From Candidatus Nomurabacteria bacterium (GTDB taxonomy: Bacteria > Patescibacteriota > Patescibacteriia > HK-STAS-PATE-3): a stretch of 64,000 nucleotides of DNA. Shown here one piece after another: positions 1-51,661 of this stretch (positions within the stretch are counted from its first letter, which is position 1; every line of letters starts with the position of its first letter). Made by a program: the position numbers and the translations under genes. Location of the stretch: the NCBI GenBank assembly GCA_023898465.1, contig CP060223.1:928001-992000 (forward strand), read 5' to 3'. Below the pieces are notes generated by a model, which was not told the origin of the DNA, made no database searches, and saw only the letters and a program-made list of their open reading frames with translations.

Positions 1-537
1 AATGGTCATGCCACCTTAATGGCTGAAGCAGCGATTGGAAACGAACCTTTTGTTTTACTCTACCCGGATGACTTAATTGTTTCCAAAAAAAATTCTATCA
101 AGGAAATGATTCAGGTCTACGAGGAATTTCAAGCGCCAGTTATGGGCCTCTTACACGTAGAGAAAAAAGATGTAACAAAGTACGGCATTGCCAAAGTCAA
201 CCACATCCGTGAACATATCTACGAAGTCTCTCAGGTTATTGAGAAGCCAACTCTCGCACAAGCACCTTCTCAGCTCGCCTCATTAAAAGGCTTTGTTTTC
301 CCTCCGATAATTTTTGAATACTTACGCAAAGTACGACGCGGCAAAGATGGAGAAATATGGCTGCCAGATGCCGTAGACCTTTATAACAAAAAACATGCCG
401 TCTTTGGTTGTGAGCTTAATGGTGAAGTATTTGATCTTGGTTCTAAGCTAGGCTGGTTAAAAGCAAATGTTTCTTTTGCGCTTAAGCGACCAGAGCTGCG
501 TAAAGAATTCCGCGCCTATCTCAAAAAATTAGTCTAA
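1..537 (+). CDS. galU: UTP--glucose-1-phosphate uridylyltransferase (GalU-like), C-terminal part; 5' end lies upstream of window
   Basis: Frame is open from base 1. Translation (…GIAKV…EKP…GEIWLPDAVDLY…) matches the C-terminal sugar-nucleotidyltransferase region of GalU-type enzymes, recognised by eye with no search. Confidence 0.5.
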   Translation, partial: NGHATLMAEAAIGNEPFVLLYPDDLIVSKKNSIKEMIQVYEEFQAPVMGLLHVEKKDVTKYGIAKVNHIREHIYEVSQVIEKPTLAQAPSQLASLKGFVFPPIIFEYLRKVRRGKDGEIWLPDAVDLYNKKHAVFGCELNGEVFDLGSKLGWLKANVSFALKRPELRKEFRAYLKKLV

Positions 538-545
538 GGGGGAAC

Positions 546-1937
546 ATGCGACGTTACGTCATTCTCATAGGTATCGTACTCATACCGGTTCTGGCCGTAT
601 TTATTATCGTGTCCGGGGTTATTAATAAACCACAGCCAAATGTACAGGACGTACCATTAACCTTTTGGACAGTACAAGATGACACAAGCGCCTTTACTGA
701 CGTGATCGCAGCATATCAGCAAGCCCACCCCTACATTACCATCGAGGTCGTACAAAAGCGTGCTCAAGATTATGGTGAGGCACTTATTCAAGCATGGGCA
801 CGTGGGGACGGGCCTGATATTTTTTCTCTCCCTAATGCAGAGGTTGGAGAATATGCTGACTTTATTGCCCCATTACCTGAGGCAACACAGGTCTATCAAT
901 ATCAGAACAAACGCGTGCTTCTCAGTAGGCAGCTTGTGATTACACCGGTCACTTCAAGCTCTATCACCCCGGCCCGCCTCAGTAATGACTATGTAGATGT
1001 TATTGCCAGCGATGTTATCCGAGATGGACAAATATATGCACTCCCATTAAGCGTAGACACCTTAGCAGTCTACGTTAATCGCAACCTTCTAAACACTGCT
1101 AATATTGTTTCACCGGCAACAACCTGGCAAGAGCTTATTTCCCAAGTACCTGATCTCACTATTTTTGATGCGCAAAATAATATTATTCAATCTGGGATCG
1201 CACTTGGAACGGCTGAAAATGTTTCCTACTCAGCTGAAATACTCTCACTGCTCATGATGCAAAACGGTACACAAATGACTGACCCAACTGGAACACGTGT
1301 GCAATTTGATCAGGGAACAAAAGAATATAACGCGGGTGAACGAGCTGTTGATTTCTACACCGACTTCTCTGACGAAACAAAAGCAGTCTACAGCTGGTCA
1401 GGGGATAGCTCACACTCAATTGATAGTTTTATCGAAGGTAAGACTGCCTACTTAATTGGCACCTTAGCTGACCAGGCAACAATTCAGGAGCAAAACCCGG
1501 CACTCCGCTATGACATCGTGCCAATGTTCCACATCAATACCGATGGAACCGACACCAGCGGCAGCACGGGAACGCGTACAAAAATTAACTACGCAAAATA
1601 CTGGGTGCAGACAGTGGCAAAAAATTCCGCTCATAGCAATGAGGCTTGGAATTTTGTGCAATACATGAGTCAGTCAGGCGTCGTCGAGGCATATCTCAAC
1701 GCCAGCGGACGTATTTCTCCTCTCCGAAAAATATTAGCACAACAAGTGAATGTGCCGGCCTTACAAGTCTTTGCCAATCAAGCGCTCACTGCGCAAAATT
1801 GGTATCATGGAAACAGCTGGACACAAACTGAAGGCTATCTCAAGCAACTCATCACCGTTGTTGCTGAAAAAACAAAGTTGCCGTTGGAGGCTTTAAGCCA
1901 AGCTGCTAAACAAGTGCAGCTCACCTTTACTGAATAA
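546..1937 (+). CDS. extracellular solute-binding protein (ABC-transporter SBP family-1-like) with N-terminal TM anchor
   Basis: 463 aa with an N-terminal hydrophobic helix (ILIGIVLIPVLAVFIIV). Length and composition (LAVYVNRNLL, TTWQEL, NWYHG) are typical of periplasmic/extracytoplasmic sugar SBPs. SD-like GGGGGAAC lies upstream of ATG 546. Confidence 0.5.
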   Translation: MRRYVILIGIVLIPVLAVFIIVSGVINKPQPNVQDVPLTFWTVQDDTSAFTDVIAAYQQAHPYITIEVVQKRAQDYGEALIQAWARGDGPDIFSLPNAEVGEYADFIAPLPEATQVYQYQNKRVLLSRQLVITPVTSSSITPARLSNDYVDVIASDVIRDGQIYALPLSVDTLAVYVNRNLLNTANIVSPATTWQELISQVPDLTIFDAQNNIIQSGIALGTAENVSYSAEILSLLMMQNGTQMTDPTGTRVQFDQGTKEYNAGERAVDFYTDFSDETKAVYSWSGDSSHSIDSFIEGKTAYLIGTLADQATIQEQNPALRYDIVPMFHINTDGTDTSGSTGTRTKINYAKYWVQTVAKNSAHSNEAWNFVQYMSQSGVVEAYLNASGRISPLRKILAQQVNVPALQVFANQALTAQNWYHGNSWTQTEGYLKQLITVVAEKTKLPLEALSQAAKQVQLTFTE

Positions 1938-2937: not shown

Positions 2938-3300
2938 ATGAATACACTACGAAAAAAACGCTTACCACTTATTCTCATGATCGCCGGACTCGTCCTCATG
3001 CCGCTGAGCGCCTTTGCGCAAAGCGGCTCGGCTGTAGCCATACCTAACCCGATTTCGTGTGGTAACTTAATTTGTCTCTTTGTAAACCTCATGCGCCTTA
3101 TTCTGGCCGGCTTAGGTGTCTTTGGCATGGTGATGTTTATTTGGGGAGGCTTTCTCATGCTTACTTCTGCGGGTAATGCTGATCGAATTCAAAAAGGAAA
3201 AGAAACCTTAGTGTGGTCAATTCTTGGTATTTTAGTAATTCTCGGCAGTTGGATACTCCTCAAATCAGTGATTGATGCAATTAACGGGGTTACTAACTAG
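2938..3300 (+). CDS. VirB2/TrbC-type T4SS-pilin-like small membrane protein (divergent paralog)
   Basis: ATG at 2938 follows the stop of the previous gene. It has a signal peptide (…PLSAFAQSGS) then two hydrophobic helices separated by the short loop TSAGNADRIQKGKE. The architecture matches the downstream paralogs. Confidence 0.5.
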   Translation: MNTLRKKRLPLILMIAGLVLMPLSAFAQSGSAVAIPNPISCGNLICLFVNLMRLILAGLGVFGMVMFIWGGFLMLTSAGNADRIQKGKETLVWSILGILVILGSWILLKSVIDAINGVTN

Positions 3301-3385: not shown

Positions 3386-3751
3386 ATGAAACAACGTACA
3401 CGACTGCTCGGCACACTAGCAGCATTTGCTATACTAGCACTTCCGTTGCTTGTTTCCGCCCAATCTGCTTTCACCGTAGAAAACATCGGTGGATCAGTTG
3501 GTCTCGGTACTGCTGACCTCAAAGATACCGTCATCAACATCATTCAATGGGTGCTTGGTATCCTCGCACTCGTTGCTGTCGTTATGATCATCATTGGTGG
3601 TTTCCAGTGGATGACTGCTGGTGGAAACGACGAAAAGGTGGAAAAGGCCAAGAAGATTATCTCAGCCGCGGTAATTGGTCTTATTATCATCTTGTTGGCT
3701 TGGGCTATTGTCATCTTCGTCGCAAATACAACGGCGAATGTCACTACCTAA
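3386..3751 (+). CDS. VirB2/TrbC-type T4SS-pilin-like protein, tandem copy 1
   Basis: SD AGGGGGTGAG lies 7 nt upstream of ATG 3386. It has a signal peptide (…LLVSAQSA), two TM helices, a WMTAGGNDEKVEKAKK loop and a C-terminal tail ANTTANVTT. Confidence 0.6.
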   Translation: MKQRTRLLGTLAAFAILALPLLVSAQSAFTVENIGGSVGLGTADLKDTVINIIQWVLGILALVAVVMIIIGGFQWMTAGGNDEKVEKAKKIISAAVIGLIIILLAWAIVIFVANTTANVTT

Positions 3752-3777
3752 TCCAATCACGTATTTGGACTTTTAGA

Positions 3778-3811
3778 ACATACCCAGCTCACTGCTGGGT
3801 ATGTTTTTATT
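3778..3811 (+). terminator. rho-independent terminator after pilin copy 1
   Basis: 11-bp stem acatacccagc/gctgggtatgt followed by TTTTTATT. Confidence 0.6.
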
Positions 3812-3836
3812 CAAAAAAGCCTTACTATGCTATAGT
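3807..3836 (+). promoter_or_regulatory. sigma70-like promoter for pilin copy 2 (TTATTC -35, 18-nt spacer, extended -10 TGcTATAGT)
   Basis: Sequence read directly. It sits between the copy-1 terminator and the copy-2 SD. Confidence 0.4.
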
Positions 3837-3873
3837 AGTATATATCTTTGAGAAGAAGAGGGGGTGAATATAC

Positions 3874-4230
3874 ATGAAGAAAGCTTTAATCGCAGTCGGT
3901 ACTTTGGCGCTCGTTGCTATGCCAATGCTTGCATCAGCCCAATCTGCTTTCACCGTTGAAAACGTTGGAGGATCCGTCGGTCTCGGTACCGCTGATTTGA
4001 AGGACACCGTCATCAACATCATTCAATGGGTGCTTGGTATTGTCGCCTTAATCGCTGTCGTTATGATCATCATTGGCGGTTTCCAGTGGATGACTGCTGG
4101 TGGAAACGACGAAAAGGTGGAAAAGGCCAAGAAGATTATATCTTCAGCCGTAGTCGGTTTGATTATTGTGTTACTCGCCTGGGCAATTGTTGTATTCGTT
4201 GCAAACACAACCTCAAACGTTACCGCCTAG
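3874..4230 (+). CDS. VirB2/TrbC-type T4SS-pilin-like protein, tandem copy 2
   Basis: SD GAGGGGGTGA precedes ATG 3874. It is ~85% identical to copy 1 over the mature region, and its tail is ANTTSNVTA. Confidence 0.65.
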   Translation: MKKALIAVGTLALVAMPMLASAQSAFTVENVGGSVGLGTADLKDTVINIIQWVLGIVALIAVVMIIIGGFQWMTAGGNDEKVEKAKKIISSAVVGLIIVLLAWAIVVFVANTTSNVTA

Positions 4231-4251
4231 CGTACACTTCGCAAATTCTGC

Positions 4252-4287
4252 AAAAGCCCTACCTTATACGAGGGCTTTTGCTTTTTC
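4252..4287 (+). terminator. rho-independent terminator after pilin copy 2
   Basis: Stem aaaagccct…agggctttt followed by gcttttt. Confidence 0.5.
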
Positions 4288-4316
4288 TGCGCAACTTTTA
4301 TTTTTCATGGTATACT
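4288..4316 (+). promoter_or_regulatory. extended -10 promoter (TGgTATACT) for pilin copy 3
   Basis: tggtatact at 4308-4316, ~30 nt upstream of the SD. The -35 is weak. Confidence 0.4.
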
Positions 4317-4344
4317 GAATGCATTACATCTTTAGGTAAAGGAG

Positions 4345-4725
4345 GTGAATGTCAGAATGACCATAAAACGATTTCTTCCCTTAGCGCTACTCGGACTTAC
4401 CTTGGTATTACTGCCTTCTACTGTAGCAGCTCAATCAACCGCCTTTACGATCGAAAATATTGGTGGATCAATCGGTCTCGGTACCGCTGATTTGAAGGAC
4501 ACCGTCATCAACATCATTCAATGGGTGCTTGGTATCCTTTCATTAGTAGCCGTTGTTATGATTATTTTTGGTGGCTTTACCTGGATGACTGCCGGAGGTG
4601 CTGAAGATAAAGTTGATCAAGCCAAGCGTATTATCACCGCTGCAGTAATTGGTCTTATCATCATCTTGTTGGCTTGGGCTATTGTCATCTTCGTCGCAAA
4701 TACAACGGCGAACGTTACCACTTAG
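4345..4725 (+). CDS. VirB2/TrbC-type T4SS-pilin-like protein, tandem copy 3 (start may be ATG 4357)
   Basis: SD AAAGGAGG lies upstream. It has the same two-TM architecture, and its C-terminal 30 codons are almost identical at the DNA level to copy 1. Confidence 0.6.
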   Translation: MNVRMTIKRFLPLALLGLTLVLLPSTVAAQSTAFTIENIGGSIGLGTADLKDTVINIIQWVLGILSLVAVVMIIFGGFTWMTAGGAEDKVDQAKRIITAAVIGLIIILLAWAIVIFVANTTANVTT

Positions 4726-4748
4726 GCTACACTAGAATCAAAACACAG

Positions 4749-4781
4749 ACCTCTCCATATTTGGGGAGGTTTTGTGCTTTT
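4749..4781 (+). terminator. rho-independent terminator after pilin copy 3
   Basis: Stem acctctcc/ggggaggt (one G-U wobble) followed by TTTTGTGCTTTT. Confidence 0.5.
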
Positions 4782-4809
4782 GGCTGACTCCGCTACACTA
4801 TGAACGCAT

Positions 4810-6816
4810 ATGTCTAAAATACCGGATAGAACACAGGCCTGGCTGCTAGGAATGATGATCTGTATGATTGTTATCTCTTTTGCAGGTCAATACGTAAAAT
4901 GGCAAAGTCTGGCCTATAACGGACTCGATTTGGGTATTTACACTCAAGTAGTATCAGAAACCAGCCAAGGGAATTTCTTTGGCTTCACCATTCACCCGCA
5001 CTCCTACTTGGGTGACCATGTTGAATTTTTACTATTACTCCTTGTGCCTCTTTTTTGGATTGTGGCTCATCCACTCTGGCTCTTGGCCGCACAAAGCCTT
5101 GTGTTGGCTTTAGGCGCTATCCCTATATTTCGCCTTGCACGCAAAAAACTAAATGGTAACTGGGCTCTAGGTTTAAGTGCAGCCTACCTTTTTTCGCCTT
5201 TCCTCTGGAATGCAAACATGTATGAATTTCACATGTTAGCTTTTGCAATTCCAATCTTACTTGCGGCACTACAAACCTACATCACTAAATCACTCAAGTG
5301 GCATTGGCTTTGGCTGGCTTTGGCCTTGCTCGTACGAGAAGATGTTGCCTTTGTAGTATTTGGCATTGGTATTGTGGCTGCAATTGAGCGGAGGAATTGG
5401 AAATGGTGGCTACCCACCTTTTTGGTTAGCGCTGCCTGGTTTGGATGTAGTATTTATCTCGCTGGATCCTTGGGCACTTTGGGTGAATATAAATTTCTCA
5501 AATACTATGGATGGCTCGGCCCCGATCTTGTTTCTATTATCGGAAACTTTTTTGGACATCCCTGGCTCGTACTCCAACGCGTGCTTCATCCGCAAGCGCT
5601 TGCTTTCTTGCTAGGCCTAGGACTCCCTTTTGCCTATTTGCCAATCTTCCGACTTCGTTGGCTTATCCCGATCTTACCTATCTACTTACAACTTTCTCTC
5701 TCAGGAGTTGCGCGAGAAATCTCACTAGAAATGCACTACGTGAGTTTGTTCTTACCATTTCTCTGGATTGGCTCTATTGAGGCAATACACAAACTTCGTA
5801 GTGAAATGGGAAAAACTCGACGAGGAAAATTTATCCAAGAATACGCCGGGGTTATTGTTAGCGTACTCGCTGTTGTGGCAATATATTGCTTCATCGTAAT
5901 CGGTCCGATTCGCGGCCTGGCACAAACCTGGTATCGACCAGATACGCAACGTGAACATGAACAGTTAGCCAGAGATGTGCTCAACATTGTACCCGATACC
6001 ACACCTCTCGCAACTGGATATCGCTTTATTTCATGGACAGCCACTCGACCCGTGTTGTACTCCTTGCACTATCTTTTTATTGGCCGGCAACAATATAGCG
6101 ATGAAAGTTTCCCACTTGACCCTAGCATCCAAACGCTGCTCATAGACCAAAGTGATTTTGTTACCTATCAATCAGTCTATCCGGAAGATAATACCGACTA
6201 CAAAGGTGGTGCCCAGCGCTTCCGCGATCTCATTGAAGAAAGAAAGCTTCAGCTCAATCTCATGGTTGACGATCTCTTGCTCTATACAAACACCCATACT
6301 ACATCCCAAAAAGAATTAGTGCGTATTGGAAATGAAGATCAACTAAGACAAAGCCTCTTTCAGACAAGCAACGGACTCATCTTGCACTCCTGGGAGAATA
6401 ATGAAGGAATCAACAAACTTCAAAGTGAATATGTGCATATTAACACGCACAACTACCTCACCCTCCCGCTCTCGTTTATCTGGTCTCAGCATGAAATAAC
6501 AACGCGTCATAATACCGTACTACTCACACTGACTCGGGGAGACGGCGCAGTGTATCAAAAAGAATATCCCATCGCCCCGCTCTGGCCGCAATCAGAGTGG
6601 CCATTAGATACTCCAATGATTACGCAACACCAATTTCTCATCCCGACCGACTTCGCCCAAAGTGATACCCAGATAGCAATGGATGTGATGTCGATTCGGG
6701 GTCGATTAAGTTTGGATACCCAACGCTCTATCGTGCCTCGCTACGATGAACACGACTCCTTGGGCCACCTTAATCTCGGAAATCTTATTCTACCGGACGC
6801 AAGCGATACAGAGTAA
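4810..6816 (+). CDS. DUF2079-like polytopic membrane protein (putative GT-C-type glycosyltransferase) with large C-terminal extracytoplasmic domain
   Basis: The N-terminal ~400 aa is multi-TM. The opening (…GLDLGIYTQVV…GDHVEFLLLLLVPLFWI…LLAAQSLVLALGAIPIFRLA) resembles the DUF2079 family signature from memory, and a ~270-aa soluble tail follows. Confidence 0.5.
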   Translation: MSKIPDRTQAWLLGMMICMIVISFAGQYVKWQSLAYNGLDLGIYTQVVSETSQGNFFGFTIHPHSYLGDHVEFLLLLLVPLFWIVAHPLWLLAAQSLVLALGAIPIFRLARKKLNGNWALGLSAAYLFSPFLWNANMYEFHMLAFAIPILLAALQTYITKSLKWHWLWLALALLVREDVAFVVFGIGIVAAIERRNWKWWLPTFLVSAAWFGCSIYLAGSLGTLGEYKFLKYYGWLGPDLVSIIGNFFGHPWLVLQRVLHPQALAFLLGLGLPFAYLPIFRLRWLIPILPIYLQLSLSGVAREISLEMHYVSLFLPFLWIGSIEAIHKLRSEMGKTRRGKFIQEYAGVIVSVLAVVAIYCFIVIGPIRGLAQTWYRPDTQREHEQLARDVLNIVPDTTPLATGYRFISWTATRPVLYSLHYLFIGRQQYSDESFPLDPSIQTLLIDQSDFVTYQSVYPEDNTDYKGGAQRFRDLIEERKLQLNLMVDDLLLYTNTHTTSQKELVRIGNEDQLRQSLFQTSNGLILHSWENNEGINKLQSEYVHINTHNYLTLPLSFIWSQHEITTRHNTVLLTLTRGDGAVYQKEYPIAPLWPQSEWPLDTPMITQHQFLIPTDFAQSDTQIAMDVMSIRGRLSLDTQRSIVPRYDEHDSLGHLNLGNLILPDASDTE

Positions 6817-8422
6817 GCTCGCCTGATTGGTATACTGTCTGAAGTGCAGAAATCGCGCTTGGATCAGCCACACTATTCCGCGTATCAAATTCACCCCATA
6901 GTAAATAATCCACACTCTGCTCTCGCAACCATCTTTCAAGGGCAGTATTTCCACTTTGGCGCGCTACAATAAAACCATCTGATTTGTCATTGTAATGCAA
7001 GGTTTCAATCGGGTGTCCAAATACCACTGCCCGACCCGCCCAAGCTGGTATATAGAGATTGCCAATTTTCCCAGCTGCAAAAACTGCACGAGTATCGGTG
7101 TGTGTTTTCATCCAGTCACTCATATCTTGATAAGATTGATCGACGTAGAGGTGGTATGGCGGCTGACGAAAAGTATCATTCGTCCAAAGATGTACATCCA
7201 TGCCCACTAAAGCAATCGGCGAAAGACTAAACACTACTACGGCCAGCATTGGAGTGGCTACATAGCGAGACCAGCTTACTAATGGAAATCGCTTGAATAC
7301 TATACGAAGACCAATAAAAGCAAATAAAGCTAGGGGGAGCATCCAACCTTCAGTTAGGCGGCGACTAAAACTAATCGGCAAAAAGAAAATACATGCTTGC
7401 CCAAACAACCACGCAAGCGGCATTGCGTAGGTGCTTCGATCACGACCTAGTTGAAACAAAGCAAGAAGGGCCAGCGGAATAAGAGCGCCATAGCTAATAA
7501 GTGTGGTAAAAAAGAATGGCATAGTATTCACATTCTGAGCCGCTCGGCTATTCGCAATTGGGTCAAAAAGTATTATCCCAACTTGGTAGAAAATCATTGG
7601 CAGCGCTAGTCCTCCTACAAGAAGCGCCCCCCACAAAGCCCGTGCCGTTTTATCCCGCTGCCATAAAAAAGTGAAGAGTATAAAAAGCACAAAAACCCCT
7701 ATCACTGTTGGTAAGTGAAAGGGGTGAAAGCTCATAAGTAAAAAAAGCGACAGGCCGCTTTGCAAAAAATACTGTATTTGCTTTTGCTGCACCCCGAGGT
7801 AATACCAATGAAAAATGAGAATAAGTAATGAGGTGGCTAAAATAAAATGCGGGCTCTGATACATCGTTAAAAATGTATACGCTTCACTTACCCAGAGATC
7901 CATCGGCCAAATCGCCCACTCAATAAATCCAAAAATGTATTTAATAAAAGGATATGCAATTGCTCCAAATCCTGCAGCAAAAAGAAAAAGCAAAATAGCA
8001 AATTTACGCTCACGCCATGCCGGAAGAAAATTGCGTAAGAAAATTTCGCTCGACCATAGGAGTAAGGGGATGAGGAGGATTCGGGCTAAATGAAAACTTA
8101 CTAATGCGGAAAGGTGCAGCCACTTTGCCATATATCCAACAACAATCCAGATTGGACTGAAAATAAAAGCGTCATGCGGCTCAGCAGTAAACAAATCCCT
8201 AAGCATCACCTGTCCCTGTTTTACCTGTTCTATGTAGGAAAAATAGACCGGCAAATCACCTGGAGCCAGTGTATGTCCTCCGGTAAAAATCATCCCATCT
8301 GCCTGCATCATCCACGCGTAGAGGTAAGGGAACGTTGTGAGAATAACTAAAGCGAGGGCTATCCACCAAAACCAACGACGTGGCATTTTTTCAGCATCTG
8401 GGTGAAGAGAAAAAAACTGCAT
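6785..8422 (-). CDS. large polytopic membrane protein, probable GT-C-like glycosyltransferase
   Basis: 545 aa with ≥10 hydrophobic helices followed by a soluble C-terminal domain. It is in an operon with a Dpm1-like GT2 (4-nt overlap). Confidence 0.45.
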   Translation of the reverse strand: MQFFSLHPDAEKMPRRWFWWIALALVILTTFPYLYAWMMQADGMIFTGGHTLAPGDLPVYFSYIEQVKQGQVMLRDLFTAEPHDAFIFSPIWIVVGYMAKWLHLSALVSFHLARILLIPLLLWSSEIFLRNFLPAWRERKFAILLFLFAAGFGAIAYPFIKYIFGFIEWAIWPMDLWVSEAYTFLTMYQSPHFILATSLLILIFHWYYLGVQQKQIQYFLQSGLSLFLLMSFHPFHLPTVIGVFVLFILFTFLWQRDKTARALWGALLVGGLALPMIFYQVGIILFDPIANSRAAQNVNTMPFFFTTLISYGALIPLALLALFQLGRDRSTYAMPLAWLFGQACIFFLPISFSRRLTEGWMLPLALFAFIGLRIVFKRFPLVSWSRYVATPMLAVVVFSLSPIALVGMDVHLWTNDTFRQPPYHLYVDQSYQDMSDWMKTHTDTRAVFAAGKIGNLYIPAWAGRAVVFGHPIETLHYNDKSDGFIVARQSGNTALERWLREQSVDYLLWGEFDTRNSVADPSAISALQTVYQSGELTLYRLRPVE

Positions 8423-9120
8423 TACTTCTGAGAGCGAAACAATAATGCAAGAATCATTTGAGCGTATTCACGAGCAATCGTGAATGAAATTTTACTCTTG
8501 CCATATTGGCGATCCTGAAAAACATAGCCGATTTCTGTGGTCTGAAGTGGACGCGCTCGAACCAAAATCTCTACTAAAAGTTTATACCCGCGCGGACGTA
8601 AAGTATGTGCAATGCGTGTATACACATCTCGTCGTACGGCAAAATATCCGCTCATAGGATCACGCTCTCGAATACCGAGCATCACCTGAGCAATCCTAGT
8701 AGCAAACCAACTCATGGCTTGGCGTCGCAGAGGCCAACCTAACATACCGCCGCCACTAACAAAGCGTGAACCGATAGCCACGTCATTACCTAACTGCACC
8801 GCCCTAATCATCTGCGGAATAATTGCCGTATCATGCGAAAGATCGGCATCCATGCAAATAAAAATTTCTGATCTGGCCTCTTCCATACCAGCCATCAGTG
8901 CAGAAGCAAGGCCTAACTTACCTGTTCGCTCAATAACCCTGACTGGATAGTGAGCAGCCAGCGAACGAACAAGCTGAGCGGTCCCATCTGGCGAAGCATC
9001 GTCAACCACAATTATCTCGACAACCAGCTGCAAGCGGGCAATCTGTCGAAGGCACGCCTCAATGTTCTCCTTTTCATTATAGGTTGGCAGGATAATGCTA
9101 GCTTTTGGCAAGGCGCTCAT
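8422..9120 (-). CDS. polyprenol-phosphate sugar synthase (Dpm1/GtrB-like GT2 glycosyltransferase)
   Basis: SIILPTYNEKENI…VVDDASPDGT…DADLSH… are classic GT-A/GT2 DxD-type motifs of dolichol/polyprenol-P-mannose/glucose synthases. Confidence 0.8.
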   Translation of the reverse strand: MSALPKASIILPTYNEKENIEACLRQIARLQLVVEIIVVDDASPDGTAQLVRSLAAHYPVRVIERTGKLGLASALMAGMEEARSEIFICMDADLSHDTAIIPQMIRAVQLGNDVAIGSRFVSGGGMLGWPLRRQAMSWFATRIAQVMLGIRERDPMSGYFAVRRDVYTRIAHTLRPRGYKLLVEILVRARPLQTTEIGYVFQDRQYGKSKISFTIAREYAQMILALLFRSQK

Positions 9121-10406
9121 GAAGATACGGATTTGGACTGATCGCTCGACCCTGATGAAGTATAAGGCAGGGCTGCTAATAGGAAAACAAGCGCGAGGTA
9201 ACCCAGGTGTGTGTCATTAAAATACCGGGCAAAAAACCAAAAAACAAGCAGGGTAAATCCATAGTACCAGAAGATATTTTGCAGGGAAATGTCTAGTCGA
9301 CTCTTCCTCAATAAAAGGAGAAAACTCGGGATTCCAATGCAGAGAGAAAAAACCCAAAATGGGAAATGTCCGTAGGGATCAATAACATGAAAAGTTGCCA
9401 TCCACTGGGCAATACCTAAACCTGATGCTGGATAACTCAACTCAGCGCTGCCGTTTGCATACTTCCAAACGTCATCATAAAAAGCTCCTGGCGACCAGAG
9501 AAAGAAAAAACCCATAACCACAATAAGGAGAAGTAGCGAAGGAAATAATGGACGATATACTTGCCGCCAAGGACCTGGTTTCCGGCGCTGCCATACTGCT
9601 ACGAGGTAAAATGGCACAAAGAGCCAGGCGGACTGCTTCATCAGTAAAGCAAAAACCAGAGCAAATCCCGAGCTCGTGTATCTGCCTCGATAAAGCGCTA
9701 GGGCTGCGAGGAAGAGGAAAAGCAATACGGTGATGTCATTCAACCCAGCCACAATAAACTTCAACATAAATGGATTCAACGCAGTAAGGATAATTGCTAG
9801 ATCTCTCCAAGGAGCTTGCACGGTTTTTGCTAAGAGTAAGAGGAAGGCAATCCAAAAAAGTAAGTACAGCGCACGTACATCAAACCAACCAGTAAATCGC
9901 TCTAGGCTCCATTGCCACGGCGCCACGATAAGGAAAGAGCCTGGTAAATACACATAGTGCTCCCAGGCTGGATTGGGTCGCGTGCTATCAGAAAAACGAT
10001 CAGGGAACACACCAAAAGCTGTACCACGATAATCACTCGCATAAGGATTTTTACCCTGTAGGAGAAAATGACTCGCTTCCTCAGTCTGGATTGCACCATC
10101 GTGCACATATGCTTCTAGTGGACGATAAGGTCGTACCAGCATCTGCAAGGTACAGACGGTCACTAGGATGCCTATGCTTAAGATAAGGACGATCCTTGTT
10201 CGCATCTCATCTGCTGATGGGGCAAAGATAAGACTTAATCCATACGCAAACACCAGCAACAAAGGCAGGATGCCAAACCAGAAAAGTGGTGTGGGGGAAA
10301 AGAAATAACTAAAGGCCTGCTGACCTGAAAAAACCTCGGCCATCACATAAAGCACGAGGAGAAGAATGAGAACAAAAGTAAAACGTCGAATCGTGATTCC
10401 GTTCAT
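9117..10406 (-). CDS. polytopic membrane protein, probable GT-C-like glycosyltransferase
   Basis: 429 aa, ~10 TM helices, and it overlaps its neighbours by 4 nt (operon). Confidence 0.45.
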   Translation of the reverse strand: MNGITIRRFTFVLILLLVLYVMAEVFSGQQAFSYFFSPTPLFWFGILPLLLVFAYGLSLIFAPSADEMRTRIVLILSIGILVTVCTLQMLVRPYRPLEAYVHDGAIQTEEASHFLLQGKNPYASDYRGTAFGVFPDRFSDSTRPNPAWEHYVYLPGSFLIVAPWQWSLERFTGWFDVRALYLLFWIAFLLLLAKTVQAPWRDLAIILTALNPFMLKFIVAGLNDITVLLFLFLAALALYRGRYTSSGFALVFALLMKQSAWLFVPFYLVAVWQRRKPGPWRQVYRPLFPSLLLLIVVMGFFFLWSPGAFYDDVWKYANGSAELSYPASGLGIAQWMATFHVIDPYGHFPFWVFSLCIGIPSFLLLLRKSRLDISLQNIFWYYGFTLLVFWFFARYFNDTHLGYLALVFLLAALPYTSSGSSDQSKSVSS

Positions 10407-12041
10407 TTACGGAGCAACTGCATAAATCTTAGCCTCCTTGTCTTCGTAGACCAGTGAGACCCCCTCTGTACCATCTACTAAACGATCCATAGCTACATGA
10501 TCTTTAGTAACAACTACGTACGATGCATGAAAAGTATCACGTAGAGTGGTACTCACCGTGCTCGGATCTGACTTCCCGGTGGTTAAATCAACCCAAGCCC
10601 AATAGCGATCTTCATCGTGGGCATACAAAAAGGTTGGATCTAAACCAGCAATATAGCGATGTGATGGATCATAGTAAAAAAGGAGTGGAAACTCATCCCA
10701 GTCACTATGTACGACAATCTCGTCTGATGGGGCATTTGCTTTTAACCAAGTGCCAACACCAGACAGGGTTGAGGCATCTTGCCCACCCGCTAGGTCGCGT
10801 CGCACATTTCGCAAGTCACGTACACCCACGCCAACCACTCCTATAACAACATAGGCGAGGATTATCACTGCGACCGTTTTTGAAAGGACGCTATGACGCC
10901 ACCCGGCCACAACATCTCGCAAAAGCGCTTTACCTGCCTTACCAGAGAGTGCGTCGCTGATGGAAAAAGCTCCAAACAACATACCAATCGGCACATAGTA
11001 TTCAACGTAGCGCTTGGACTTCAGGGTAAGCAGGAAAAAGAAAATGGTTAGCAAGAAGAGGGTCCAGGAGCGGACAGACTGCTTTCGTAATTGCAGAGCC
11101 ATACCGAATATCCCTAACACCACCACAATAGAAACAAAGATGGTGGTAGGAATAAGCTCACCGATGTGATACGGATACCACTCTCCGCCTACGCCAATGC
11201 TATGTTGCGCATTAATAATGCCAATCTTAAAAAGCTGGTATTCGTAAAATCGAATGTTGTGCGGGAAGCTAGGATTAAGCAATAGACCTGCCAGCATCCC
11301 ACCCCCAACCGCCAAACCTATGGTGATGTAAAGACGCCAAGAAGCTTCATGGTGTCGCCAACGATCATACTGCTCATGCAGACGAGTAAGGAGAGAACGA
11401 GAATCACTCTGATGGAGTATCCAATAACGGACTAAGCCCACCAGGCAAAACACCGCTGTACAAACAAGCAGCAGGGAAAATCCGCCGTATACCCAAACAA
11501 AAATCCATGAGTACACAAAAGCCCACTTTGCTCGGAAGTGAAACACCAACCATAAACCAGCCAAAAGAAGTGTCACTCCCAGAACAGGCGCTTTTGGTAA
11601 ACCCATCCGAAACATGAATGGATTCACAAACAAAAGCAACAAGGTAAATACAAATGCCCATCGCACTTGGAAGGAACGAAGGAGGCCATAGAACATGCCA
11701 GCCATCACTGCAGTGAGTAAAATAGTGGCGACTTTTATCCCGACCAGTGGATCAGCTATAGAAACAAACGGGATGAGAATAACGTGATAAAGAAAATGCT
11801 GATTAATGTAATTCTCACTCAGGGATGTAAAAGGCAGCCAGGGAAACTGCGTAAAAAAACCTTTGTCAGCTACCAGGGTTGCCATCCGAGCATGATAAAA
11901 AGAATCAGGATCAGCAAAAGCATCATGCAATTGCAAATACGATGCAATGACCAGGGCAATCATCATGATAAGCAGACCGGTCAGAAAGGGCGTCCGGCAA
12001 AAGATACGATAGATTTTATACCACCAAGCCTCCTTTTCCAT
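10407..12041 (-). CDS. ArnT/PMT-family-like (GT-C) membrane glycosyltransferase
   Basis: 544 aa and multi-TM. The first extracytoplasmic loop, DAFADPDSFYHARMATLVADKGFF, resembles the DExRYAE…SGDW motif of ArnT/PMT GT39/GT83 enzymes. It has a soluble C-terminal domain. Confidence 0.5.
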   Translation of the reverse strand: MEKEAWWYKIYRIFCRTPFLTGLLIMMIALVIASYLQLHDAFADPDSFYHARMATLVADKGFFTQFPWLPFTSLSENYINQHFLYHVILIPFVSIADPLVGIKVATILLTAVMAGMFYGLLRSFQVRWAFVFTLLLLFVNPFMFRMGLPKAPVLGVTLLLAGLWLVFHFRAKWAFVYSWIFVWVYGGFSLLLVCTAVFCLVGLVRYWILHQSDSRSLLTRLHEQYDRWRHHEASWRLYITIGLAVGGGMLAGLLLNPSFPHNIRFYEYQLFKIGIINAQHSIGVGGEWYPYHIGELIPTTIFVSIVVVLGIFGMALQLRKQSVRSWTLFLLTIFFFLLTLKSKRYVEYYVPIGMLFGAFSISDALSGKAGKALLRDVVAGWRHSVLSKTVAVIILAYVVIGVVGVGVRDLRNVRRDLAGGQDASTLSGVGTWLKANAPSDEIVVHSDWDEFPLLFYYDPSHRYIAGLDPTFLYAHDEDRYWAWVDLTTGKSDPSTVSTTLRDTFHASYVVVTKDHVAMDRLVDGTEGVSLVYEDKEAKIYAVAP

Positions 12042-12094
12042 ACGCTAAAGTATAGCATTCTCATGCCTACACGGCGAACTGCTGATTAGCGAAT

Positions 12095-13147
12095 TTACTT
12101 CAGCTGCGCTTTGAAATAATCCACCCAAGGAATCGGCGATGGATCTATGTCATGCTCCATAGCGAGCCAGAAGCTGAGATAGCCACTAAAGGTGAGGTGT
12201 AAAACTATCTCTTCTAAGCGCGACTGAGCAGAAACCTTCACATCATCAACGCTAAAGTGCTGTCGTTGAAAAACCTTTTTACTAATACCGTAACGTTTTT
12301 CATTTCGAGCATGTAAAAACTTTGAACGAAGCATGAGTACATGCAGGGCTACTTTAGGATGCGCTAAGCCCTCCATGAGGTGGTGATTTAATCCTGGGAT
12401 AGGGAAATGTAGCGCAAAATGCTTACTGTTTTCATGGAAGCGATTTCGATAGGCCAGGGCTACATTTTCTAAGTGCTCGCTCCCCACAATAAGCGGGATG
12501 CGAGTGCACAACTTCTTGGCTAACTGCAGAGTAGTATTTCGTTGTTGAGGCGCCTGCACTGACCATTGTTTACCAGCTCGTCGAGCCTTCTCTATTGCGC
12601 GATGTAATTCTGGAGTAGATACACGTAGCTGCCCAGCAGCCGCAAGTAGCCCCATAATACCAAAAAGCATGTATCCAGTACCCATGCGAGGTTGCTGGGA
12701 TGGATTATACCGTGCATCAAAAATATAGGCGGGAATTTTCCATTGCGTAGCCAACTTGGCCAATGTCCCACCCGAGGAAATAACCATGAGTTTGGCGCCA
12801 CGTTGTCGAGCCTGACGAAGCGCGCTCACACTTTCTTCCGTACCGCCTGAATAACTTGAGGCGATTACGAGAGTATCAGGACCAACATAGGCTGGAATAT
12901 CGTACTGCTCTATTACCTCAAAAGTCGCTTTTGATGAGGGACGCAAAAAATCCGCTGCGATCCGAGCTGGAAATGCAGAGCCACCCATACCAGCCACCAC
13001 AATTTTTTTCACTGCACGATAACTAGCAGGCACAGCTATGCGTGAGGATTCGTCCCAGGCTTGTGCAATCTGATCAGGAAAAGCATCGAGCGAACTTAAC
13101 ATTTGTTGCTTATCAAGTCTTTGGACTTTTTGTTGTAGTGTCATCAT
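12095..13147 (-). CDS. bifunctional phosphoglucose/phosphomannose isomerase (SIS domain, archaeal-type PGI/PMI)
   Basis: VVAGMGGSAFPARIAADF…LVIASSYSGGTEE…MVISSGG are tandem SIS-domain motifs characteristic of PGI/PMI. Confidence 0.7.
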   Translation of the reverse strand: MMTLQQKVQRLDKQQMLSSLDAFPDQIAQAWDESSRIAVPASYRAVKKIVVAGMGGSAFPARIAADFLRPSSKATFEVIEQYDIPAYVGPDTLVIASSYSGGTEESVSALRQARQRGAKLMVISSGGTLAKLATQWKIPAYIFDARYNPSQQPRMGTGYMLFGIMGLLAAAGQLRVSTPELHRAIEKARRAGKQWSVQAPQQRNTTLQLAKKLCTRIPLIVGSEHLENVALAYRNRFHENSKHFALHFPIPGLNHHLMEGLAHPKVALHVLMLRSKFLHARNEKRYGISKKVFQRQHFSVDDVKVSAQSRLEEIVLHLTFSGYLSFWLAMEHDIDPSPIPWVDYFKAQLK

Positions 13148-14006: not shown

Positions 14007-14487
14007 GTCACGTCGCATTCTCGGAATTGACCCTGGCTATGGACGACTCGGTTACGGAGTGCTGGAGGAAAAAGATCGGACGCTCCACTGTGAAAGCTAC
14101 GGCTGCATCGAAACACCGGCGAAAGAAGAAGCACCAGTCCGGCTAGCTAAGATTGCCCAAGAGCTACGCAGCATTTTACAACGCTATCAACCTGACCTCA
14201 TCGCAGTAGAAAAACTTTTCTTTGCAAAAAACACCAAGACAGCCCTCGGGGTAAGTGAAGCACGGGGAGTAGTACTCCTGATTGCACAAGAATACGGTGC
14301 AGAAATACAAGAATTTACACCAGTAGAAGTAAAACTAGCCTTAACCGGCTACGGACAAGCAAATAAAGATCAAGTACAGCAGATGGTAGAACGCCTCCTC
14401 AAAGTAGAGGAAAAAATCGCCAGCGATGATGCGGCAGACGCACTGGCAATCGCCATCTGTGCCGCCCACACAAAAATACCTACATGA
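13996..14487 (+). CDS. ruvC: crossover junction endodeoxyribonuclease RuvC
   Basis: ILGIDPGYGRLGYGVLE…LIAVEKLFFAKNTKTALGVSEARG… It overlaps the end of yebC by 11 nt, the classic yebC-ruvC linkage. Confidence 0.85.
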   Translation: MPNKSRRILGIDPGYGRLGYGVLEEKDRTLHCESYGCIETPAKEEAPVRLAKIAQELRSILQRYQPDLIAVEKLFFAKNTKTALGVSEARGVVLLIAQEYGAEIQEFTPVEVKLALTGYGQANKDQVQQMVERLLKVEEKIASDDAADALAIAICAAHTKIPT

Positions 14488-15539
14488 GTTCGATGAAACA
14501 ACAAAGTGAACAGCTCATTCATGCCACCGAGCGAATCTTTCGTGAATGTGTGCAGACAAATGGGGCTATCACTATCTCTCCTGATAGTAAACTGGTAATA
14601 CCTCATCACGCTGCTTTTGTTACTGTGGCAGCACCTTTTGTTGGTTTAGAGCTTGCTCCAGAATTTTTTGCTTGGGTTAAAAAAACTCTAGAGAATGAGG
14701 AGAATAACGGAGCCTTAAGTAATGCCTATGATTGGGAGGGAAAAGCAACCCATTCGCCAGCCCGATTTGCACCCGAACAAAACGGCGCCATGCTCTGGAG
14801 TATTGATGCCTATATTGAACGACATCCAGAGGAGCTGGCTCATATGAAGGAATTAGTAAGCCTGCTCGTGCAAGGAATTACTCAGCACTGGAAAAAAAAT
14901 GGATTTTCGCGTACTACTAATGAGGTATGGGGGGAACATCATCACATAGGAGCGCCTGAGATGAATCAGCGCTTTACATATGCCCTAGCCGCCTGTGCAC
15001 ATGGGCTTGAACGTGCGGCCGCTCGCTATAAGCAACGGCGATGGAAAGCTATTGCCGGGCAAATGCGTGAGCATATAAATAATGCCTGGGATGAAAACAA
15101 AAAGACTTTTCATCGCGCGCTTGGTAAACATAATGATACAAGCATTGATAGTCTAACTCTCGGACTTTGCTGGCCTTATCATATTTACGAGGCAAAAGAG
15201 AAACGCATGCAGGCAGCTGTCGAACGCATTGAAGAGGTGCTTATTGATGGTGGTGGAGTGCACCGCTTCCAATATGATTACCACGACAGCGAAGGGGATG
15301 CAGAAGATGGTGGTGGTATTTGGCCAGCTCTTAATTTTTGGATGAGCATCTATTTTGTTGAACAAGGCGATGAGGCAAAGGCGCGGGCTTACTTCCAATG
15401 GGTATTAGAACGCGTGCATGAAGAACTCCCAGAACAAATGTTTAAAGATTTTCGTATCGGCATTACTCCTTTTGCCTGGAGTCACGCACTCTTTCTCTTG
15501 GCTGCTCATAGTTTAAAACTTCTCCCAAATGAAGCGTAA
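14484..15539 (+). CDS. GH15-family (glucoamylase/glucodextranase-like) (alpha/alpha)6 glycoside hydrolase
   Basis: The composition (…NGAMLWSIDAY…, …GGIWPALNFWMSIYF…) resembles the GH15 catalytic toroid. The family is inferred by eye. Confidence 0.5.
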   Translation: MSSMKQQSEQLIHATERIFRECVQTNGAITISPDSKLVIPHHAAFVTVAAPFVGLELAPEFFAWVKKTLENEENNGALSNAYDWEGKATHSPARFAPEQNGAMLWSIDAYIERHPEELAHMKELVSLLVQGITQHWKKNGFSRTTNEVWGEHHHIGAPEMNQRFTYALAACAHGLERAAARYKQRRWKAIAGQMREHINNAWDENKKTFHRALGKHNDTSIDSLTLGLCWPYHIYEAKEKRMQAAVERIEEVLIDGGGVHRFQYDYHDSEGDAEDGGGIWPALNFWMSIYFVEQGDEAKARAYFQWVLERVHEELPEQMFKDFRIGITPFAWSHALFLLAAHSLKLLPNEA

Positions 15540-17004
15540 ACTTCGCATCATGAACGTAGCTGCAGAAGTGGCTCCCTATGCCAAAACCGGGGGCCTGGCT
15601 GACGTAGTACATGCGCTACCAAAAGAATTAGTACACCAGGGCCATAGCGTCAGTATTATCATGCCCTGCTACGGCTTCATGAAAAAGCAAAATATTCCCA
15701 TGACTGAGGTGGATCGCTTCCGCATTAGTGTGGGGAGTAAAAACTTTGGAGCGACTATCTATCAAACTGAATTTTCACCAGGCTTAACAATCTACTTTGT
15801 TGCCAATCACGAACTCTTTGGTCGTTCGCGACTCTATGGCTACCCAAACGACAACACTCGCTTCATGTTCTTTTGTAAGGCCGTTGTACGCTTTATTAAA
15901 GAAATGAATAACCGGCCTCATGTCGTTCACTGCCATGATTGGCACACCGGGTTAATACCAAACTACCTCAAGCAAAAATTTAATCACGACCCATCTCTCC
16001 GCTCAATCGCAACACTCTACACGATTCACAACCTACCTTTCCAATTCGGATCAGACTGGTGGAAGGTGCCGCCAAAGCAGCAAGATGACGGACGCGGCGT
16101 ACCCCCTGAAACACCGACGAAGAAGTTGAATCGAGTAAACTTTGCCAAACGCGCCTTACTCAACGCCGACATCATCAACACGGTAAGTGAGCGCTATGCT
16201 GAAGAAATCCTCACCCCAGAATTTGGCCAAGACCTTGATGGAATACTCCGACGTCGAGAAGAAGATGTCTACGGCATTGTAAATGGCATTGACTACACCG
16301 TATATAATCCGGTGTATGATAAAAACATCCCGGTAAACTACGACTGGAACCAGCTCGATAAAAAACAGCTCAACAAAAACGCCTTGCAGCGTAAGGTTGG
16401 CCTAGAGCAAAAAGCTGATATCCCGCTCATCGGGGTAGTGAATCGCTTAAGTGAGCAAAAGGGATTTAACCTGCTACGTGAAATTGCCTACGTGCTCGTG
16501 AAGCTGCCTCTGCAGCTCGTTATTGTGGGAAGTGGACATCCGGATTATGTGCGCTTCTTTAAGCGCTTAGCAAAAAAATATCCTAAGCGGATTGGCTTTT
16601 ACTCTCCTTTTACCGAGGAGCTCGCTTCGCTTACCTATGCTGGCTCTGACATGTTCCTCATGCCCTCGCGCTATGAGCCATGTGGAATTTCCCAAATGAT
16701 CAGTTTACGATACGGCTCTATTCCGATTGTCCGAGAAACAGGCGGGCTCTCTGACACTATTACCAATTTCAATCCAAAGACGCAAAAAGGTATTGGCTTT
16801 GTATTTTCTGGATATACCAAGGAAGATTTTCTCATCGCTATTGTCCGAGCCCTCGAAACCTATCGCTATGCACAGGTCTGGGAACACCTCACCTGGCGAG
16901 CTATGAAAACGTCATACTCATGGGAGGTGCCAGCAAAAAAATATGCGCAGTTATATCGCTTAGCTTATCGACATAAACGGGCACGAAAGAAGGGGACAAC
17001 ATAA
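15529..17004 (+). CDS. glgA: glycogen/starch synthase (GT5, GlgA-like), paralog 1
   Basis: AKTGGLADVVHALPKEL… contains the KTGGL motif, with HCHDWHTGL… and a GT-B C-terminal half. Confidence 0.85.
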   Translation: MKRKLRIMNVAAEVAPYAKTGGLADVVHALPKELVHQGHSVSIIMPCYGFMKKQNIPMTEVDRFRISVGSKNFGATIYQTEFSPGLTIYFVANHELFGRSRLYGYPNDNTRFMFFCKAVVRFIKEMNNRPHVVHCHDWHTGLIPNYLKQKFNHDPSLRSIATLYTIHNLPFQFGSDWWKVPPKQQDDGRGVPPETPTKKLNRVNFAKRALLNADIINTVSERYAEEILTPEFGQDLDGILRRREEDVYGIVNGIDYTVYNPVYDKNIPVNYDWNQLDKKQLNKNALQRKVGLEQKADIPLIGVVNRLSEQKGFNLLREIAYVLVKLPLQLVIVGSGHPDYVRFFKRLAKKYPKRIGFYSPFTEELASLTYAGSDMFLMPSRYEPCGISQMISLRYGSIPIVRETGGLSDTITNFNPKTQKGIGFVFSGYTKEDFLIAIVRALETYRYAQVWEHLTWRAMKTSYSWEVPAKKYAQLYRLAYRHKRARKKGTT

Positions 17005-18248: not shown

Positions 18249-18304
18249 TTGTACGGTAGGTGCGCATAGAACTTTCATTAGACAATTAATTCCTTAGAAA
18301 AAAC

Positions 18305-19675: not shown

Positions 19676-19699
19676 GCAGGTTCTTATATAGAATACGTG

Positions 19700-19728
19700 C
19701 AGCGCGTCCAAATGGGCGCGCTGTTTGT
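19700..19728 (+). terminator. rho-independent terminator after GH57 paralog 2
   Basis: Stem cagcgcg/cgcgctg followed by TTTGT. Confidence 0.5.
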
Positions 19729-19735
19729 AAAAAAA

Positions 19736-19744
19736 TGCTACAAT
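19736..19744 (+). promoter_or_regulatory. extended -10 element TGCTACAAT, 9 nt before ATG 19754 (leaderless-type promoter)
   Basis: Read directly. The identical motif recurs at 55280. Confidence 0.4.
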
Positions 19745-19753
19745 AAGTGAAGC

Positions 19754-33556: not shown

Positions 33557-33808
33557 AGTAGATATTTTATATAAAACAGGAAGTAGTAATAGTAAGGGCT
33601 GGGGAAATGTGGATGAATGTGAGAGGGGTAAGTTTTAGGTAAGTAATCCGGGCTTATTTTACTTTTCATTTTTTTCTCTCATGTGTATATCATCGGCATC
33701 CTTATGTGCACGGTGTGTGAGAGGAAAGGGGATGAAAAATGTCATGTACACTTATCCAGTTTTTGTGCGGATACCATCCCCAAAGATATCCCAATACTTA
33801 TCCGCAGC
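33557..33808. promoter_or_regulatory. oriC part 1: DnaA-box cluster plus AT-rich stretch between dnaA and dnaN
   Basis: tgtggatga (33608), ttatccag (33752), tgcggata (33765) and ttatccgca (33798) are 7-8/9 matches to TTATCCACA. The AT-rich tract is ttttacttttcatttttttctctc. Confidence 0.55.
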
Positions 33809-38793: not shown

Positions 38794-38851
38794 GCAGTAG
38801 CCCCCAGGTTCCGTTCTCCTCCTGAAGCGTGTATACTTGAGAGGCTGTATT

Positions 38852-49336: not shown

Positions 49337-49528
49337 CCGCCGGATCCGTTTTTTAAGCCTGTTCGTATATCACCCCCATGGTTGCGATCTGTGAAAGAAC
49401 GTCCTGTTTGGTCGATAAAGTAGCACAGCGCCAGCTAGAGTCAAGTTGTCCTTCACTTGACGGAGAAAGACGTTTTTAGATATAGTGCACGTAGACAGAT
49501 TTTGGTGGCTCTCAAACGGGAGTCACCT

Positions 49529-51655: not shown

Positions 51656-51661
51656 AAATAC

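Follow-up and report, generated by a model that had tools for sequence, protein, structure and literature searches.

A predicted lipid-carrier-dependent glycosylation island with an STT3-like enzyme beside conjugation-type pilin genes in a member of the Patescibacteria

A cluster of membrane glycosyltransferase genes adjoining an array of pilin genes raises the question of what the cluster glycosylates: the pilins, other surface proteins or a polymer of the cell envelope. Such a cluster lies near one end of a 64,000-nucleotide stretch of contig CP060223.1 (positions 928,001–992,000; assembly GCA_023898465.1, labelled Candidatus Nomurabacteria), which was analysed at its full length and is referred to as the window. 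An original prediction, made from the sequence alone, had proposed that the tails of three tandem pilins (P1–P3), or an S-layer or cell-wall polymer, are modified by products of the neighbouring genes, which encode a DUF2079 protein, three polytopic membrane proteins (here M1, M2 and M3), a Dpm1-like glycosyltransferase (GT2) and a bifunctional phosphoglucose/phosphomannose isomerase (PGI/PMI), with a GalU fragment upstream of the array. The open reading frame (ORF) map of the window contains every one of these genes (Table 1). The reading as a glycosylation locus of GT-C and Dpm1-like enzymes is right, and the probability that the region is a lipid-carrier-dependent cell-surface glycosylation island of a Kerfeldbacteria-like Patescibacterium is put at about 0.6. 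Pilins may be among the acceptors, the prime candidate being their short, outward, Thr/Asn-rich C-terminal tail, but this part is proposed tentatively, at somewhat under even odds.

The invariant member of the cluster is M3. Its AlphaFold model (pLDDT 92.3, pTM 0.90) consists of a 13-helix transmembrane (TM) domain followed by a C-terminal domain of the oligosaccharyltransferase (OST) type, and OST catalytic subunits fill the first 14 places in a Foldseek search (E 2e-9 to 7e-7, TM 0.56–0.66), after which ALG12, DPY19, AftD and ArnT are ranked. Alignment of 47 family members reveals invariant positions in D44-P-D46-x-F-Y-H50, E287-W288 and K341/S342/R344/Y345/E347 and, on the C-terminal side, in W448-D449-x-F451-P452 and G466-L-D468. 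The polytopic fold and the conserved acidic residue in the first extracytoplasmic loop place M3 in the GT-C superfamily, and DPDSFYH gives its first external loop a D-x-D, as is also the case in STT3-type enzymes. The motif H-S-D-W-D-E-F-P follows the last TM helix at a distance of ∼28 residues and forms part of a strand–motif–helix–strand–Asp arrangement in the model, and W-D-[ED]-F-P occurs in nearly all of 80 related loci. This site is presumably equivalent to the ...WWDYG...D of OSTs, judging from the order of secondary-structure elements rather than from superposition. The original prediction had noted that none of the membrane proteins shows WWDYG and had argued from this for an O-mannosyltransferase-like mechanism. 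A literal WWDYG is indeed not present in M3, in which W448-D449 is the only retained part; the argument against an STT3-like enzyme fails, since the fold of M3 best matches those of STT3, PglB and AglB and W448-D449 is invariant.

None of the 47 family members matches the Pfam STT3 family (PF02516) at E ≤ 1, and scanning them against Pfam produced only weak matches to DUF7649; the window proteins M1–M3 gave no matches in Pfam or NCBIfam. The M3 family, for which there is no Pfam model, comprises 559 matches in a word-indexed search and at least 1,356 clusters (50% identity, E ≤ 1e-30) in an exhaustive search, with relatives in 281 species genomes. M3 is not called a GT66 enzyme because there is no sequence link to STT3, because DPY19, a user of dolichyl phosphate mannose (Dol-P-Man), almost equals the OSTs as a fold match (which speaks against true STT3 membership), because M1 has the same architecture and because the only lipid-sugar synthase at the locus is of the monophosphate type. 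On the evidence of the model, our description of M3 goes no further than STT3-like in fold. Because M3 is the constant member of the island and shares the build of STT3, PglB, AglB and DPY19, we take it to be the enzyme from which a protein acceptor would receive its first sugar, or a glycan. The stronger proposal, that M3 founds an unrecognized STT3-like branch of protein glycosyltransferases across the Candidate Phyla Radiation (CPR) with the C-terminal tails of VirB2-type pilins among its substrates, is quite unlikely.

M1 is a remote paralogue of M3 without the W-D motif, occurs in 0–3 copies in relatives and has the polytopic fold and the conserved acidic residue in the first extracytoplasmic loop of the GT-C superfamily; its family members produced only weak Pfam matches, to DUF6541 and Dpy19 (0.055). 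M2 showed no relation to M3 in hhalign. The window protein has no Pfam match at E ≤ 0.1, and an identical database protein has a precomputed match to PF26314 (MptA_B_family). Among 18 relatives of M2, 12 match GT87 (best E 1.3e-11) and ten match ALG3, with further matches to Alg6/8, and D103 and E109 in the first loop are invariant. M1, M2 and M3 are all GT-C glycosyltransferases, M2 being predicted to be GT87/MptA-B/ALG3-like. This agrees with the class originally proposed for the three proteins, given the fold matches of M3 and M1 and the GT87 and ALG3 matches of M2 relatives. An identity as transporters was rejected: matches to ABC and other transporter folds have a Foldseek probability below 0.1.

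The DUF2079 gene directly follows the pilin genes on the same strand, and this placement recurs in most loci. Its product has invariant residues at D40 (just after TM1), D69-H70, E139, R176-E177-D178 and K228. Comparison of DUF2079 with M1–M3 in hhalign was insignificant (≤20% probability), and it has no match in the PDB. The protein is a putative GT-C-type transferase: DUF2079 is presumably a member of the GT-C clan, and presumably also the family of Rv3779, a user of polyprenyl-phosphate GalNAc.

The donor for these enzymes would be supplied by GT2, which aligns over residues 6–226 with the dolichyl phosphate mannose synthase (DPMS) of Pyrococcus furiosus (5mlz_A; E 2.2e-50), a far better match than those to ArnC (next, 4.6e-12) or GtrB. 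Its GT-A domain is homologous to DPMS and carries DxD-type motifs (DDA and DAD, read from the sequence) and no TM anchor; it reached no NCBIfam equivalog cut-off. GT2 is thus a predicted polyprenyl-phosphate hexose synthase of the Dpm1/DPMS type, in line with the original reading of this gene. The identities proposed for PGI/PMI and GalU were likewise upheld, the former by its NCBIfam match (Table 1) and the latter by a full-length orthologue at the related locus L001 (TIGR01099; E 8e-97, 323.9 bits against a cut-off of 326.8). In the ORF map PGI/PMI is the first gene of a minus-strand operon with the order PGI/PMI, M3, M2, GT2 and M1, in which neighbouring genes overlap or are separated by gaps of 0–53 bp. 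The operon converges on a plus-strand unit of galU, a solute-binding protein gene, five VirB2-type pilin-like genes and DUF2079, and the 3′ ends of M1 and DUF2079 share 32 bp (6785–6816).

Conservation was assessed in the neighbourhoods of 80 genome loci and of five contigs obtained from protein look-ups, annotated with hidden Markov models built from the window proteins; identity of M3 across the compared loci is 35–59%. The nearest relatives at the locus are labelled Kerfeldbacteria, Falkowbacteria or Buchananbacteria, whereas the source, a metagenome-assembled genome with a contig of 1.08 Mb, is labelled Nomurabacteria, and many related CPR metagenome-assembled genomes bear the label 'uncultured Gammaproteobacteria'; such names appear to be unreliable as taxonomy. 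The common gene order, with M3 taken as plus, is RuvC and YebC (minus), PGI/PMI and M3 (plus), a variable segment and then DUF2079, pilins, small pilin, peptidoglycan-binding pilin, solute-binding protein and GalU (minus), so that galU marks the outer end of the conserved block. PGI/PMI immediately precedes M3 in most of the 85 loci. DUF2079 and pilins lie beyond M3, on the other strand, in 51 of the 80 genome loci, at a distance of −36 to 9,629 bp (median 4.4 kb). The neighbourhood that the original prediction had asked to be compared is therefore conserved in at least 51 species-level genomes.

The segment between M3 and DUF2079 has at least 20 different gene contents in these 51 loci. Besides genes like M1, M2 and GT2 it contains S-adenosylmethionine-dependent methyltransferases (24 loci), PMT_2-, GT87- and YfhO-like GT-Cs and GT4 enzymes. 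M3 directly abuts DUF2079 or the pilins in L017, L047, L049, L062, L067, L078 and L080. A constant transferase and a constant putative acceptor would thus flank a hypervariable island, an arrangement that resembles the glycosylation islands of pilins, flagellins and O-antigens. A protein of ∼415 residues without a Pfam match recurs in the variable island of 14 loci (e.g. L027, 11524–12771) and may represent another unannotated family of membrane glycosyltransferases. At the distant locus L087 (44–7002) the M3 homologue (786 residues) is fused to a weak GDPD domain. The genes after it encode a sulfatase-family (LtaS/EptA/PptA-like) protein and a GT2, and the group converges on type IV secretion system (T4SS) pilins, one of which ends in ALTNVTD; in some lineages, this gene content suggests, the chemistry may be of the phospho-form or teichoic-acid-like kind.

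P1–P3 are predicted VirB2/TrbC-type T4SS pilins, with profile scores of 47–58 bits against the PF18895 cut-off of 26.6; on the strength of these matches an identity as type IV pilins was rejected. A signal peptide (AxA site) and a pair of hydrophobic helices connected by a Lys-rich loop can be read from each sequence, and the positive-inside rule applied to this loop would direct both ends outward, making the tail extracytoplasmic. The tails originally described (VANTTANVTT, VANTTSNVTA and VANTTANVTT) are present, each with two N-x-T sequons (NTT and NVT). The three genes form a three-copy DNA repeat of 300 nt, and at the protein level P2 shares 83% and P3 75% identity with P1; because they are near-identical repeat copies, the three tails count as one evolutionary event. 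The array had been described as three copies; three are near-identical, but it totals five pilin-like genes, the extra two lying upstream (Table 1) in an order that is kept in relatives. The larger of these encodes a T4SS_pilin hairpin fused to a PG_binding_1 domain, a fusion conserved in relatives. A scan of 20 larger window ORFs found no T4SS component (VirB4 or VirB6) and only a PilB-like T2SSE ATPase.

Among the pilins of relatives, 24 of 79 unique tails contain NxS/T; shuffling that preserves composition gave 14.5 ± 2.7, and never as many as 24 in 1000 rounds, a result that is not a true probability, the sequences being related. Thr and Ser together make up 28% of the tail residues. TTxNVT is retained in the close clade and NV[ST] reappears in the distant loci L040, L049, L055 and L087. 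Pilin glycosylation is plausible as a prediction from sequence. Inspection by eye gave no clean link between tail type and the gene content of the island.

Several observations weigh against the glycosylation of pilins by this locus. No VirB2-type pilin is known to be glycosylated. The ORF map of the region contains no flippase and no initiating phosphoglycosyltransferase. Searches of the PDB by sequence or profile with M1, M2, M3, DUF2079 and the C-terminal domain of M3 returned only noise, and neither whole M3 nor its C-terminal domain retrieved an OST chain. The GT-C fold does not fix the acceptor: M2 and DUF2079 (the latter through its presumed relation to Rv3779) resemble enzymes that make or decorate lipoglycans and arabinogalactan, and M1, although equally STT3-like in fold, also resembles AftA, the acceptor of which is a glycan. 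In the pilins themselves the tail starts only ∼2 residues past the TM helix, a tail sequon is present in 22 of 38 loci and absent from the other 16 while the W-D motif of M3 is unchanged throughout, the first sequon NTT is often replaced by G/K/R/Q-TT, and NVT turns into DVT or KVT in several genomes, with many distant loci lacking a sequon. The two-sequon tail is accordingly not a feature of the family, as its first sequon is often lost and ∼40% of the loci have no tail sequon. Finally, the conserved block also carries RuvC, YebC and alpha-glucan/glycogen genes, and L050, L056, L058, L060, L063 and L064 retain PGI/PMI, M3, GT2 and M1 without nearby pilins, both flanks having been lost. There are no pilins within ∼10 kb downstream in L050, L056 (where FtsK is next), L060 and L064, and the sequences of L058 and L063 stop 1.3 and 3.1 kb past M3. 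The inference from co-localization to pilin glycosylation is thus weakened even though the adjacency itself is conserved: because RuvC, YebC and the alpha-glucan genes share the block, pilin adjacency is no better conserved than adjacency to unrelated genes, and the six loci indicate that PGI/PMI, M3, GT2 and M1 form a stable unit.

An alternative is that the GT-C cluster serves to build or decorate an envelope polymer other than protein (e.g. lipomannan-like lipoglycan, teichoic-acid-like polymer or wall polysaccharide), with the pilins as mere syntenic neighbours. The presence of unrelated housekeeping genes in the block and the persistence of the operon in the six loci without nearby pilins are consistent with this, as are the GT87, MptA_B_family and ALG3 matches of M2 relatives, which point to mannan- or lipoglycan-type enzymes, the YfhO-like and PMT_2 GT-Cs of the variable island and, at L087, the LtaS/EptA-type protein and the weak GDPD fusion. 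The logic of a Ppm1 synthase combined with GT-Cs is established for mycobacterial lipomannan and lipoarabinomannan (LM/LAM; PMC3485146). However, every top structural match of M3 is a GT-C that modifies proteins, the C-terminal domain of M3 is of the OST type with a retained W-D, M3 keeps its place beside DUF2079 and the pilins in loci that lack the rest of the island, and the pilin tails are rich in Ser, Thr and Asn with sequons above the level of the shuffles. A polymer as the sole acceptor is a serious alternative but appears somewhat unlikely.

If the pilins are modified, two linkages have to be considered. M3 could be a divergent bacterial N-oligosaccharyltransferase of the STT3/AglB kind that transfers a glycan to Asn of the NVT (and NTT) of the tail, as suggested by the best fold matches, which include the C-terminal domain, by the invariant first-loop D-x-D, E287 and W448-D449, the last at a WWD-like place (presumably so, judging from secondary structure), and by the retention of NVT in the close clade and its reappearance in the four distant loci. 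Against this stand the lack of any family match to Pfam STT3 or to OST chains in the PDB, the non-literal WWDYG, the replacement of the Asn of NVT by Asp or Lys in several relatives and the 16 of 38 loci that have W-D and no sequon. Moreover, the sole lipid-sugar synthase at the locus is the monophosphate-type, DPMS-like GT2, and there is no PglC/WecA-type enzyme or flippase. N-glycosylation of this kind is thus improbable. Conservation of W-D was considered as a sign of sequon recognition and rejected, W-D being present with or without sequons in neighbouring tails.

The other possibility, which the original prediction preferred, is an O-glycosylation in the manner of Pmt or TfpW, in which M3, DUF2079 or M1 would transfer single hexoses from polyprenyl-phosphate hexose to the Thr residues of the tail. 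GT2 would give exactly such a donor, Thr-rich tails remain where the sequon is lost (e.g. TQTNKVTT, SQIIKSTTT and STISTATQ), and TfpW, itself a GT-C, O-glycosylates pilin Thr/Ser from a polyprenyl-phosphate sugar (bioRxiv 10.1101/2020.04.19.049825). On the other hand, PMT and MIR domains were not found, the tails of some distant loci have few or no Ser and Thr residues, and the caveats on synteny apply here as well, so that this specific form of O-glycosylation is unlikely. If the pilins are modified at all, O-linkage to Thr is somewhat likelier than N-linkage because of the monophosphate donor logic and the patchy occurrence of the sequon.

Under the preferred interpretation of the region as a surface glycosylation island, PGI/PMI and GalU (through UDP-Glc) would supply hexose phosphates to nucleotide sugars, and the soluble DPMS-like GT2, acting at the inner membrane face, would charge polyprenyl phosphate with a hexose (mannose or glucose being the likeliest). 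Once the loaded carrier has been flipped, acceptors on the outer face would receive sugars through the GT-C enzymes M3, M1 and M2 and probably also DUF2079. M3 would attach the first sugar or glycan to the protein acceptor, and a strain-specific glycan would then be elaborated by the variable set of GT-C, GT2, GT4 and methyltransferase enzymes encoded between M3 and DUF2079.

Table 1. Features of the locus and of the remaining window (coordinates in the window).
Feature	Coordinates	Strand	Basis
galU, 3′ part, cut by window edge	19–537	+	phmmer orthologues of relatives in same position
SBP_bac_1-type solute-binding protein, membrane-anchored	546–1937	+	PF01547 in orthologues; conserved neighbour of pilin array
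Cys-rich pilin-like protein, 327 aa	1941–2924	+	PF18895 E 6.9e-7; PF01471 E 4.8e-6
Small pilin-like paralogue, 120 aa, tail VIDAINGVTN without sequon	2938–3300	+	Aligns with P1–P3; orthologues match PF18895
Predicted pilin P1, tail FVANTTANVTT	3386–3751	+	PF18895 E 4.9e-15, 55.8 bits; TrbC E 4.5e-5
Predicted pilin P2, tail FVANTTSNVTA	3874–4230	+	PF18895 E 9.4e-16, 58.1 bits
Predicted pilin P3, tail FVANTTANVTT	4345–4725	+	PF18895 E 1.9e-12, 47.5 bits
Terminator-like hairpin, 11 pairs and T-run, between pilin array and DUF2079	4747–4772	+	Consensus scan only
DUF2079 polytopic membrane protein	4810–6816	+	PF09852 E 1.3e-58, 199.6 bits
M1, polytopic membrane protein	6785–8422	-	GT-C fold; M3 paralogue
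GT2, predicted Dpm1/DPMS-type	8422–9120	-	PF00535 E 1e-34
M2, predicted GT87/MptA-B/ALG3-like membrane protein	9117–10406	-	Matches of relatives
M3, 544 aa, contains DPDSFYHARMATLVADKG	10407–12041	-	STT3/PglB/AglB-like fold
PGI/PMI, bifunctional phosphoglucose/phosphomannose isomerase	12095–13147	-	NF006425 E 2e-66; SIS and bact-PGI_C domains
PilB-like T2SSE ATPase (type IV pilus/type II secretion system)	38837–40561		ORF scan

Beyond the operon the window carries an alpha-glucan/glycogen-type cluster (14484–23128) with a GH15-like protein, two GT5 starch-synthase-like proteins, two GH57 proteins, an APH-family kinase and a GalT-like protein. The dnaN and dnaA genes (32459–35191) lie ∼28–30 kb from the pilin array, and the minimum of the cumulative GC skew is near 38–42 kb. 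Large secreted-type proteins with Lamin-tail, PKD, fn3 and FG-GAP domains are encoded at 49457–55024; these are possible surface adhesins and further candidate targets of glycosylation.

To our knowledge, almost nothing is known of the surface glycans of CPR bacteria, and a conserved yet internally hypervariable glycosyltransferase island beside a pilin array offers a testable handle on the decoration of their surface and possibly of their pili. It also brings out a large family of STT3-folded GT-Cs that is currently unannotated. If M3 is a protein glycosyltransferase, OST-like enzymes would have a broader distribution in bacteria; if it modifies the pilin tails, these would be the first glycosylated conjugation-type pilins, and a strain-variable glycan island could tune the way in which episymbionts present an essential pilus to hosts and phages. 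Should the acceptor be a polymer, the main pathway by which this lineage glycosylates its outer face would still be defined by these genes. With conjugation-type pilins alongside and an unannotated family of STT3-like GT-Cs at the centre of its hypervariable island, the locus is a testable lead in CPR surface biology. A literature search found no paper on DUF2079 or on OST-like enzymes of the CPR, and for Patescibacteria in combination with oligosaccharyltransferase or pilin glycosylation it found nothing beyond predicted O-sites on type IV pilins.

In enzyme architecture the known systems closest to M3 are STT3, AglB and PglB (GT66), with DPY19 close behind. M3 differs from the GT66 enzymes in having no detectable sequence homology to them, in its SDWDEFP in place of WWDYG, in its shorter length (544 residues) and in that a second DxD/ExD motif is not recognized; the locus, moreover, has a Dol-P-Man-synthase-like GT2 and no genes for the assembly of a diphosphate-linked oligosaccharide. 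The Gtr and CsbB–GtcA–YfhO systems of O-antigens and teichoic acids follow the same logic, in which a GT2 makes a C55-P-sugar and a GT-C transfers the sugar outside, and the variable island of relatives includes a YfhO-like GT-C. In contrast to these systems, GT2 here is without the C-terminal TM helices of GtrB/CsbB, there is no GtrA/GtcA flippase gene and M3 is not YfhO-like. LM and LAM are not known from CPR bacteria. The actinobacterial systems (Ppm1 with MptA, MptB, PimE and Pmt; PpgS with Rv3779) share with this locus the combination of a soluble DPMS-type synthase and several GT-Cs (PMC3485146), but their acceptors are lipoglycans, arabinogalactan or many secreted proteins, and they have no pilin context.

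In genetic logic the closest system is TfpW of Pseudomonas aeruginosa Pa5196, a GT-C that is encoded beside a type IV pilin and arabinosylates it on the outer face from a polyprenyl-phosphate sugar (bioRxiv 10.1101/2020.04.19.049825); TfpO/PilO and PglL are looser parallels. The likeness is one of gene arrangement, a GT-C beside a pilin with an outward Ser/Thr-rich surface; the TfpW substrate is a type IV pilin in a diderm, whereas the pilins here are predicted VirB2/TrbC two-helix hairpins in a CPR bacterium and their modification is hypothetical. A Wzy_C/O-antigen-ligase domain of the PglL/TfpO type was not found at the locus. The array itself belongs to a widespread pattern already described in Patescibacteria, where 441 VirB2-like pilin arrays were found in 383 assemblies and T4SS genes often lie near dnaA; in Ca. 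Southlakia epibionticum, the one species tested, VirB2-like arrays are essential for epibiotic growth (Microb Genom 2025, PMC12102498). That study mentions no glycosylation island beside the arrays. The published arrays consist, as here, of tandem PF18895/PF04956 genes, with the present array located ∼30 kb from dnaA, and their copies share 25% identity on average (PMC12102498) compared with the 75–83% seen here.

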